Made by a program: the position numbers and the translations under genes
Assembly (NCBI GenBank): GCA_964549685.1
Contig: CAZJVE010000020.1
Span: 1 to 14,634 of the forward strand
Direction of reading: 5' to 3'
DNA: 14,634 nt
DNA from: an uncultured archaeon
GTDB taxonomy: Archaea; Altiarchaeota; Altiarchaeia; IMC4; QMZM01
In this document: positions 1 to 281 of the stretch, piece by piece
Layout of the letters: every line of letters begins with the position of its first letter
Position numbering within the stretch: the first letter of the stretch is position 1
Notes under the pieces: model-generated
What the model saw: the letters and a program-made list of their open reading frames with translations, nothing else
The model's database searches: none
What the model was told of the DNA's origin: nothing

Positions 1-124
1 CGAGGTGGAGTTCTATGGTTTCGTTGATGTTGAATTCCTCTTTGTCCGCCTCCAGATTCACGGTGGTTGCGGAAATTCCCTGTATCAGCAGGAGAATTCC
101 CAGGATTAGGATTGTTTTTTTCAT
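1..124 (-). CDS. Secreted hypothetical protein, N-terminal part (runs off the window); paralog of 4321..4899
   Basis: Manual translation from ATG at 124: MKKTILILGILLLIQGISATTVNLEADKEEFNINETIELHL. Signal-peptide-like; 30/41 residues identical to the N-terminus of 4321..4899. Not in the ORF track. Confidence 0.85.
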   Translation of the reverse strand, partial: MKKTILILGILLLIQGISATTVNLEADKEEFNINETIELHL

Positions 125-139
125 CTATGAAAACACCTC

Positions 140-281
140 ATTAAGTTAATCCGATTCATCGTTTTTATCCTCTTTTTTGGCACGTTTTTTTGGGCCGACA
201 TTCATCTATTCGCGCTCTACTGGCGCATTACGACGGGTCGTTTGTGTTGGCGGCCTCAGTCATTCTAGCGACCTCAATGGA
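140..281 (-). ncRNA. Putative bridge RNA / seekRNA of IS copy 1 (ends approximate)
   Basis: Contains an exact target 8-mer (ttcatcta 201-208 = 120-127) and an exact donor-end 9-mer (gtcattcta 259-267 = 1367-1375), each within short stems; nearly identical in copy 2. Confidence 0.75.

Follow-up and report, generated by a model that had tools for sequence, protein, structure and literature searches.

An archaeal IS1111-type element with a predicted two-loop seek/bridge RNA, an ATGA core and a stop/start target

We analysed positions 1 to 14,634 of contig CAZJVE010000020.1 from an uncultured archaeon of the Altiarchaeota (assembly GCA_964549685.1). We call this whole stretch of 14,634 nucleotides the window. 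The window carries two copies of an insertion sequence (IS) of the IS1111 type, both on the minus strand and each a repeat of about 1.25 kb. We consider it probable that this element encodes a two-loop seek/bridge RNA 3' of its transposase gene, that its core is ATGA and that its target is TAGA-ATGA-AAA. In silico, the family of the element, its core, four guide matches with their covariation and the bias of the target motif towards gene junctions are all supported. Both this kind of element and its mechanism are already known; by these comparisons, what is new is a divergent archaeal member and its target.

The assembly (1.17 Mb in 27 contigs, 85% complete) contains just these two copies, and every long open reading frame (ORF) of the window lies on the minus strand. 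Read on that strand, each copy has the layout flank-TAGA-ATGA-CGAC-ATGAAAACACCTC…transposase…about 157 nt of non-coding sequence…GAGGTGTTTTCAT-AG-ATGA-AAA-flank. The subterminal inverted repeats (sTIRs) ATGAAAACACCTC and GAGGTGTTTTCAT are 13 bp long and perfect in both copies. The features of the two copies are:

8050..9296, minus strand: IS copy 2, intact, 1247 bp including one ATGA core; bounds taken from the empty site in a genome of the same genus (G001, below), the repeats and the alignment
8207..9232, minus strand: transposase of copy 2, 341 aa, with a DEDD RuvC-like domain and a Tnp_20 domain
9297..9300, minus strand: left target flank TAGA of copy 2; the upstream Nitro_FeMo-Co gene terminates with the TAG at 9298-9300
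9293..9296, minus strand: left core ATGA of copy 2
9276..9288, minus strand: left sTIR ATGAAAACACCTC of copy 2, preceded by the 4-nt extension CGAC (9289-9292)
8052..8064, minus strand: right sTIR GAGGTGTTTTCAT of copy 2, followed by the extension AG (8050-8051)
8043..8049, minus strand: right core ATGA (8046-8049) and right flank AAA of copy 2; the host start codon is 8047-8049
125..1371, minus strand: IS copy 1, its transposase split by a 1-nt deletion into ORFs 282..977 and 1061..1315
1351-1363 and 127-139, minus strand: inverted repeats of copy 1
1372-1375 and 1368-1371, minus strand: left flank TAGA and left core of copy 1
121..124, minus strand: right core ATGA of copy 1; the host ATG is 122-124

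A preliminary description of the window, made from its sequence alone, had placed each copy directly upstream of an ATG and had called the element an archaeal member of the IS110 superfamily. Both statements hold: the host ATGs stand at 122-124 and 8047-8049, and within the superfamily the element is of the IS1111 type. The transposase matches PF01548 (DEDD_Tnp_IS110, 4.8e-31) and PF02371 (1.3e-24), and it scores 266 bits against a cut-off of 140 with NCBIfam NF033542, 'IS110 family RNA-guided transposase'. It has the DEDD N-terminal domain and the Tnp_20 C-terminal domain with the catalytic serine that define the IS110 superfamily. The IS621 and ISCro4 recombinases, whose structures are solved (PDB 9t56, 8wt6), are homologues with which D6, E52, D90, D93 and S255-G256 align. 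IS1111 transposases are 330-350 aa long, contain the motif GL-P----S/TG and have a longer non-coding region (NCR) downstream of tnp (Siddiquee et al. 2024, PMC11187229). The 341-aa protein of the window contains GLVPRVYQSG, its stop at 8207-8209 is followed by an NCR of about 157 nt, and its 13-bp sTIRs fall within the 11-13 bp of IS1111 elements. The available text of PMC11187229 describes IS1111 elements as abundant in bacteria and archaea, and that of Durrant et al. (2024, PMC11208160) gives right-end bridge/seek RNA predictions for 93% of them.

The host is archaeal as well. Its archaeal signal recognition particle (SRP) RNA scores 123 bits and its archaeal RNase P RNA 91 bits, both above cut-offs that, among the control genomes, four archaeal ones alone passed. 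The locus is present in seawater and marine metagenome runs. In scans of two public collections, one of genomes and one of metagenomes, 253 and 451 relatives were confirmed and the best 80 of each were kept; the closest transposase in them has 48% aa identity. Closer relatives were sought across 49 genomes of the order, and the closest overall, at 62% aa, lies in a single genome of the same archaeal family (G017).

The core of the element can be read from a natural empty site. G001 (same genus, about 85% nt identity, 86% complete) has no copy of the element at E<=1e-30, and its orthologous pair of Nitro_FeMo-Co genes is uninterrupted at the site of copy 2. The empty site is GCA-TAGA-ATGA-AAATT, or GCATAGAATGAAAATT (L164, about 1495-1510), in the context …GGGGCAGAGCA-TAGA-ATGA-AAATTGCAGTACC…. 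The left flank of copy 2 agrees with G001 through TAGAATGA and the right flank agrees from ATGAAAATT. Because these two matches overlap on ATGA, the comparison identifies ATGA, and not TAGA, as the duplicated core.

The junctions of relatives are a second line of evidence for the same core. G017, with relatives at four places (60-62% aa), has cAAA-ATGA-CGAT and tAAA-ATGA-CGAT as left junctions and CATAG-ATGA-ACAT and CATAG-ATGG-AAAA as right junctions. In another genome, G022 (49% aa), the junctions read AAAA-ATGA-TGAC on the left and CATAG-ATGA-AAAT on the right. Both genomes have the right end of the window element, yet their left junctions are without TAGA, and what left and right junctions have in common is ATG(A) alone. 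An ATGA core also leaves AG+ATGA+CGAC, 10 nt, between the sTIRs. This equals the published rule for IS1111, in which terminal extensions of 7 bp on the left and 3 bp on the right put 10 nt between the repeats in the circle (PMC11187229). The circle junction predicted from this core is …GGTGTTTTCATAG-ATGA-CGACATGAAAAC…, with 10 nt between the repeats. The preliminary description had given the shared core as TAGA and the empty site of copy 2 as GCATAGATGAAAATT, which is one A short of GCATAGAATGAAAATT. This error of one base inverts the assignment of the guides: with ATGA as the core, the roles of target and donor guide are swapped.

Exact 9-mers equal to both insertion junctions lie within the 3' NCR. 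The word UAGAAUGAC equals the left flank TAGA, the core ATGA and the first base of the IS, and AUAGAUGAA equals the right end ATAG of the IS, the core and the first base of the right flank. These matches exceed chance: among 5000 dinucleotide shuffles of the 205-nt region, some left-junction 9-mer occurred in 99, some right-junction 9-mer in 144, and both in 0. The 8-mer TAGATGAA (201-208 and 8125-8132) and the 9-mer TAGAATGAC (259-267 and 8184-8192, all minus strand) are where the preliminary description put them. It had taken the 9-mer for the donor guide and the 8-mer for the target guide; we reverse these roles, since the 9-mer tracks the left flank across relatives. It had also been unable to identify with confidence the guides for the opposite strand, which we find as UUUUCAU and GUCGU. 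We name the guides by strand (T, complementary to the top strand; B, to the bottom strand) and by loop (t, target; d, donor):

8210..8216, minus strand: target guide T_t, UUUUCAU, complementary to top-strand ATGAAAA (core and right flank); within the last transposase codons
8185..8192, minus strand: target guide B_t, UAGAAUGA, equal to left flank TAGA and core ATGA (top-strand identity); the next base, C 8184, equals the first base of the IS
8154..8158, minus strand: donor guide T_d, GUCGU (then AAU), complementary to ACGAC (last core base and 4-nt left extension)
8126..8133, minus strand: donor guide B_d, AUAGAUGA, equal to the IS right end ATAG and core ATGA, and followed by A 8125, which matches the base that opens the right flank
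285-292 (UUUUUCAU), 260-267, 230-234 and 202-209, minus strand: T_t, B_t, T_d and B_d of copy 1, with the hairpin at 212-226

In both loops the top-strand guide stands 5' of the bottom-strand guide and the two overlap on the core. The target loop is 5' and the donor loop 3' in the RNA, the reverse of what follows from calling the 8-mer loop the target loop and the 9-mer loop the donor loop. In IS1111 seekRNAs, too, the match complementary to the top strand comes 5' of the match complementary to the bottom strand, and the two overlap in the target (PMC11187229). Here UUUUCAU (8216-8210) is followed by UAGAAUGA (8192-8185) and they overlap on ATGA. The element likewise has what defines a bridge RNA, separate target and donor loops that address both strands around a shared core: there are four guide matches in two hairpin-bearing loops. 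Past the core, each bottom-strand guide has one further base that fits the non-cognate partner; in the relative L083 and the L088 group this extension measures 4-5 nt. It resembles the handshake guides of IS621, as far as the available text of Hiraizumi et al. (2024, PMC11208158) describes them.

The guides change with their partners among relatives. The first 4 nt of B_t and the left flank read UAGA/TAGA in the window (2/2 copies), GAAA/CAAA, TAAA in G017 and AAAA/AAAA in G022. The word AUAGAUGAA is identical in the window, G017 and G022, and so is the right end that they share. L083, the nearest metagenomic relative (48% aa), has the guide words AUAAGGUGAC and AUGGGUGAUUGU and the junctions ATAA-GGTGA-CGTC and CATG-GGTGA-TTGT. 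In a Rhizobium group the first word varies from copy to copy and equals the flank of that copy (TCTAGGAG, CTCAAGGAG, TGAAGGAG, ACAGGAG), and the second word is constant, CAUUGGAGA. Guides that change with the target among related elements, as seekRNAs do, are thus found in the window, G017, G022 and the Rhizobium group. A left-junction copy followed by a right-junction copy (at least 7 nt each) is present in the NCR of 49 out of 140 related loci that had sufficient flank; the 49 amount to 24 non-redundant elements. This count is a lower bound from a crude script, which found no repeat in 10/140 loci and returned many spurious 'repeats' of 8-9 nt; the 140 junction rows were partly checked by eye.

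The guides for the opposite strand covary too. T_t lies 17 nt upstream of UAGAAUGA, and matches of the same type occur at similar spacing in L013 (CCCUGCUC, 17 nt), L087 (UUCCCGCAU, 15 nt) and L126 (CACAAUACU, 14 nt), in G022 (UUUUUUCAU) and, in the 14-17 nt spacing class, in L083. Such matches of at least 7 nt are found in 7/19 non-redundant relatives vs 4% of 266 mismatched pairings of elements and flanks. The window copies differ in T_t at one base, which is G in copy 2, opposite T in the flank of that copy, and U in copy 1, opposite A; this is a hint from a single position that T_t tracks the flank. T_d varies with the left-end extension, as GUCGU/ACGAC in the window, GUCAU/ATGAC in G022 and GACGU/ACGTC in L083; in G017 the fit is partial. 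T_t lies outside the interval of the preliminary description and inside the 3' end of the transposase gene (8210-8216; 285-292). Identity between the two copies is 88.4% at the left end, 83.1% in the coding sequence (CDS), whose last ~70 nt reach 97%, and 95.6% in the right part, which is non-coding. Because the NCR and the end of the CDS are more alike than the CDS overall, the 3' region may either be under stronger constraint than the protein or have been homogenised between the copies.

A short hairpin stands between the two guides of each loop. The paired elements are:

8217..8224, minus strand: 5' arm of the target-loop lower stem, GCCUC(G)AG, pairing with CUGAGGC at 8178-8184; compensatory changes in 3/6 pairs, 5 sequences
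8195..8208, minus strand: target-loop hairpin GAUC-CUUUGA-GGUC; GACC/GGUC in G017, GGUU/AACC in G022, GGUC/GACC in L083
8136..8150, minus strand: donor-loop hairpin GCGC-CAGUAGA-GCGC; compensatory changes in 3/4 pairs by RNAalifold on 22 relatives

The comparative structure is moderately supported. Across five sequences from four lineages 86.7% of cells are paired, vs 24-49% with slid partners, and changes on both sides occur in 6/15 pairs, vs 0-2 when slid. A covariation score as high as the observed one was attained by none of 500 shuffles (0/500). When the 34 nt in front of the second word are folded, nearly all of 22 elements give a hairpin that ends 1-2 nt before the word (mean folding z -1.67; 16/22 below -1). 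L021 and L129, whose left match is clearly spurious, were left out of the alignment and of this folding. Comparative folding of the right end, which the preliminary description had proposed, yields hairpins with compensatory changes, and the donor hairpin is found by RNAalifold as well. Global RNAalifold on the 22 relatives recovered that hairpin only, because the MAFFT alignment of the target loop is poor. The G-U pairs in the kept helices fit the transposase-sense strand only. They are better support for this strand than the U-G wobble in a GUCG/CGAC stem from which it had originally been proposed: that stem can be drawn, but it competes with CGAC/GUCG and is not clearly conserved in relatives.

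We picture the mechanism as follows. RNA from about 8116-8224 of copy 2, a stretch that takes in the final ~20 nt of the transposase ORF, would fold into two loops. Loop 1 would read the target TAGA-ATGA-AAA, with UUUUCAU paired to top-strand ATGAAAA. Loop 2 would read the circle junction CATAG-ATGA-CGAC, and recombination would take place within the shared ATGA. From the sequence itself, insertion preserves the upstream stop and the downstream ATG, because ATGA, which is duplicated, holds the start codon with the overlapping TGA and TAG lies in the left flank. GAGGUG, part of the right inverted repeat, stands 9 nt in front of the host ATG, where it may serve as a Shine-Dalgarno sequence. The element is bound to take the sense orientation of the operon. 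We infer that the RNA is produced and bound, as well as its ends, the details of strand exchange, expression by read-through and a benefit of the site. CTTAAA in the right end was considered as an archaeal promoter and rejected; its spacing to the ATG looked wrong.

The target shared by both copies reads as TAGAATGAAAA, that is, TAGA-ATGA-AAA. We counted this motif and shorter words at sites outside both IS copies, with ORFs of at least 100 codons and with a closing stop within -6..+1 of the ATG:

TAGAATGAAAA: 6 free sites; the ATG opens an ORF at 4 and also closes one at 4
TAGAATGAAA: 11 free sites; opens an ORF at 8, also closes one at 7
ATGAAA: 1021 free sites; opens an ORF at 263, also closes one at 61
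TAGATGAA (word of the preliminary description): 52 free sites; opens an ORF at 5, also closes one at 3

Because the corrected motif contains stops in two of the three sense frames and ATG-AAA, it is by composition a signal of stop/start junctions. The earlier idea that the guide aims at such junctions therefore survives in part: the signal is a translational junction, but the target is TAGA-ATGA-AAA and not TAG^ATGAA. The word TAGATGAA, with 3 junctions among 52 free sites, is superseded by the corrected motif. The next junction downstream of copy 2 (7650-7653, minus strand), CAT-TAG-ATG-AAG, is a natural TAGATGAA stop/start about 400 nt away. It is unoccupied, which fits an element that does not recognise TAGATGAA. 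Copy 2 is the clean case, TAG-A-ATG between two Nitro_FeMo-Co genes, and appears to be the only documented stop/start insertion; the insertions compared are the two in the window and three to four in relatives. The right flanks of G017 also begin ORFs at the core ATG. Such junctions may be selected safe sites for insertion.

Relatives often insert near starts of translation. A co-oriented start lies within 30 nt in 47/64 unique right flanks, vs 17/64 at +100 nt. Many members of the clade (L017-L082, the Rhizobium group; L102, L111, L113, L117, L123, L129, L133, L136, L145, L152 and L074), several metagenomic ones among them, have xAAGGAG/GGAG-N5-8-ATG as their insertion site. In these relatives, inserted at Shine-Dalgarno-like sequences (AAGGAG/GGAG), GGAG is the duplicated core, a co-oriented ATG follows after 5-8 nt, and the guide word of the NCR varies from copy to copy with the left flank that it equals. 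The targets of other clade members are quite unlike these, such as GGCCTGACCCC in the FCPU426 copies. In two distant relatives, L086 and L091, the right flank just past the IS resembles the 3' portion of an opposite-strand tRNA gene (…GGGTCGGGATTCGAACCCGAG…), and this may be another target class in the clade.

We tentatively suggest, as a possibility rather than an expectation, that a branch of IS1111 in bacteria and archaea has guides tuned to initiation signals (GGAG/GGTGA cores, ATGA overlap) and rides on operon transcription at little polar cost. If this is true, insertion keeps the upstream stop, the downstream start and the ribosome-binding site, the orientation is forced to be operon-sense, and transcription of the host operon expresses both transposase and guide RNA. 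Elements of the IS900 group, mycobacterial IS110 elements that lack long inverted repeats, insert in one orientation between ribosome-binding site and start codon (RBS-spacer-ATG), whereas here the target is stop-ATG. If this picture of IS900 is right, the targeting of translation-initiation signals has a precedent in the superfamily. In the literature we found no description of targeting of ribosome-binding sites or start codons by IS110 or IS1111 elements; the supplementary target logos of PMC11187229 and PMC11208160 were outside the search and may show similar targets or loop order.

Several observations weigh against our reading of the element. On the side of the RNA, the tested structure had been drawn from the window copy, a choice that tilts the test in its favour, and the set of sequences is small. 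For the lower stem of the donor loop two readings compete: CGAC(8164-8161)/GUCG(8123-8120) and GUCG(8158-8155)/CGAC(8121-8118) are mutually exclusive, G017 favours the CGAC/GUCG version (UAAC/GUUA) and G022 allows the GUCG/CGAC version. The minimum free energy of the whole region is no better than that of shuffles (z = -1.16 and -0.19), and for this reason we replaced single-sequence folding by the comparative reading. The NCR has no Rfam match at gathering score; at E<=10 it gives chance-level matches of 15-18 bits vs cut-offs of 60-80. T_t taken alone is weak, as its 7-mer occurs in 541/5000 shuffles, and T_d is just 5 nt long, followed by AAU with a mismatch opposite the core G. On the side of insertion, the genome holds two insertions only and six perfect 11-mers are free. 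If the flanks of copy 1 are joined at ATGA, a CbiA/Fer4-like gene and the gene after it run together in one reading frame. Four DNA runs, compared as contigs over 7900-9450, show no circle, empty-site joint or new insertion, although contigs drop rare forms; they do show both copies in other samples. Among the runs listed for the locus there is no RNA run.

One alternative is that the guides are real but their position at gene boundaries is a by-product of recognising an 11-mer and not a programmed safe site, with purifying selection and codon content explaining which insertions survive. We regard this as a serious possibility, though the less probable one. The motif brings its own stops in two of three sense frames and its ATG-AAA, its free copies are mostly at junctions anyway (7/11), six perfect sites are unused, and other members of the clade, such as those with GGCCTGACCCC, have quite different targets. 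Against it stand the many relatives whose insertions likewise lie directly 5' of starts, in the proportions given above. In addition, the duplication of the core together with GAGGUG preserves stop, start and ribosome-binding sequence, which fits adaptation without proving it.

The other two alternatives are very improbable in our view. The model of the preliminary description has the core TAGA, the empty sites TACTAGATGAAAAAA and GCATAGATGAAAATT, a target guide UAGAUGAA (core and right flank) and a donor guide UAGAAUGAC (core and left end). TAGA does stand at both junctions of both window copies, and flanks of copy 1 joined by TAGA give a tidy AGA-TGA/ATG overlap with no gene fusion. However, the model lacks the extra A of the G001 empty site, and G017 and G022, with the same right end and AUAGAUGAA, have left junctions without TAGA. 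It also leaves the left flank without specificity, provides no opposite-strand guides, puts 11 nt between the repeats of the circle (…CATAGAATGACGAC… / …TTTTCATAGAATGACGAC…) against the published 7+3, and predicts a word of which 52 sites are free and 3 are junctions. Equally improbable is that the internal copies of the junctions act as DNA and not as RNA guides, be they additional binding sites for the transposase, sites that resemble ends, or remnants of nested insertion. The matches are indeed DNA identities, no RNA evidence was obtained, and there is a resemblance between ATGAAAA, the right target flank, and the left inverted repeat ATGAAAACACC. Yet the hairpins beside the matches keep pairing through compensatory and G-U changes that suit the transposase-sense strand only, the layout is that of experimentally shown IS1111 seekRNAs (PMC11187229), and the protein matches a family named for RNA guidance (NF033542). 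An IS1111-type element with a 3' seek/bridge RNA and the core ATGA is the reading that we prefer.

The joint at copy 1 is the main loose end of this reading. No uninterrupted copy-1 site is found in G001 or G002, and the AGA-TGA/ATG overlap TACTAGATGAAAAAA, once reconstructed as the empty site, is not confirmed. Both have a different gene after the CbiA/Fer4-like gene, and synteny is absent in G001. The end of the CbiA-like gene in G001 differs from that in the window, and the signal-peptide gene of G001 stands behind a different gene (junction CCGGAATGAAAAAG). Because synteny with G001 is missing here and the start of the signal-peptide gene is duplicated at 4899, copy 1 probably sits at the joint of a rearrangement or duplication, and its flanks were probably never contiguous.

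The duplication can be followed on its own. The gene that starts at 4899 has a diverged duplicate (73-76% nt) in the signal-peptide gene whose start adjoins copy 1 on the right. The duplicated regions are 3-124 and 4778-4899 in the window, with G000:C23:1-350 and G001:C10:643-1185; G001 has a single copy. The boundary of the duplication coincides with IS copy 1, which suggests an IS-associated rearrangement there.

The remaining observations concern the neighbourhood. The operon contains several MinD/CbiA-Fer4 paralogues beside Nitro_FeMo-Co genes. A conserved 30-nt block coding for Walker A (repeat family D7) occurs at 2170-2199, 3428-3457 and 4277-4306 and marks the starts of three paralogous P-loop (CbiA/MinD-like) genes. 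The Nitro_FeMo-Co gene upstream of copy 2 ends in a low-complexity tail rich in Gly, Met, Arg and Gln (9308-9409, minus strand), built from imperfect repeats of 18-24 nt (repeat family D4); G001 and G002 have length variants of it. Rfam Intron_gpII, the catalytic domain of group II introns, matches at 13662-13762 (minus strand) with 52 bits at a gathering score of 40 (E 5.7e-08); the match lies between ORF 13213..13683 and ORF 13776..14627. By this match a group II intron or a remnant of one is present in the archaeal contig.

The value of the element lies in its map. All four guides of an archaeal IS1111 seek/bridge RNA can be read, and the core is fixed by a natural empty site. With a target on the start codon, every insertion takes the direction of the host gene and leaves the two reading frames whole. 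The element is thereby a useful natural example of where programmable recombinases could land harmlessly, and a hint that a clade of such elements exploits translation-initiation signals. The known mechanism is unchanged by the finding.

Among known systems, the element is most directly compared with the IS1111 elements that have seekRNAs, ISEc11, ISPa11, ISKpn4 and ISPst6 (PMC11187229). It shares with them the DEDD transposase of 330-350 aa with GL-P----SG, sTIRs of 11-13 bp, asymmetric extensions that total 10 nt, the long NCR downstream of tnp, the order of the guides and their overlap in the target, and the single orientation of insertion. It differs in its archaeal host, in a first guide that lies inside the transposase ORF and in being known here from sequence alone. 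Its target also differs: an 11-mer at a stop/start junction, where theirs are REP sequences, attC sites or a transposon end.

The comparison with the bridge RNA of IS621 and ISCro4 extends as far as the available text of PMC11208160 and PMC11208158 describes it. In both systems there are two internal loops with one guide per strand that includes the core, the core is common to target and donor, at least one base past the core matches the non-cognate partner, and the recombinases are homologous. In contrast to IS621 and ISCro4, the RNA of the window element lies 3' of the gene and not 5', and the order of the guides in each loop is reversed (PMC11208160). Its apparent core has 4 nt (ATGA) instead of CT, and its inverted repeats are long. 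Finally, the extension that spans the junction is on the bottom-strand guides here and on the top-strand guides there.

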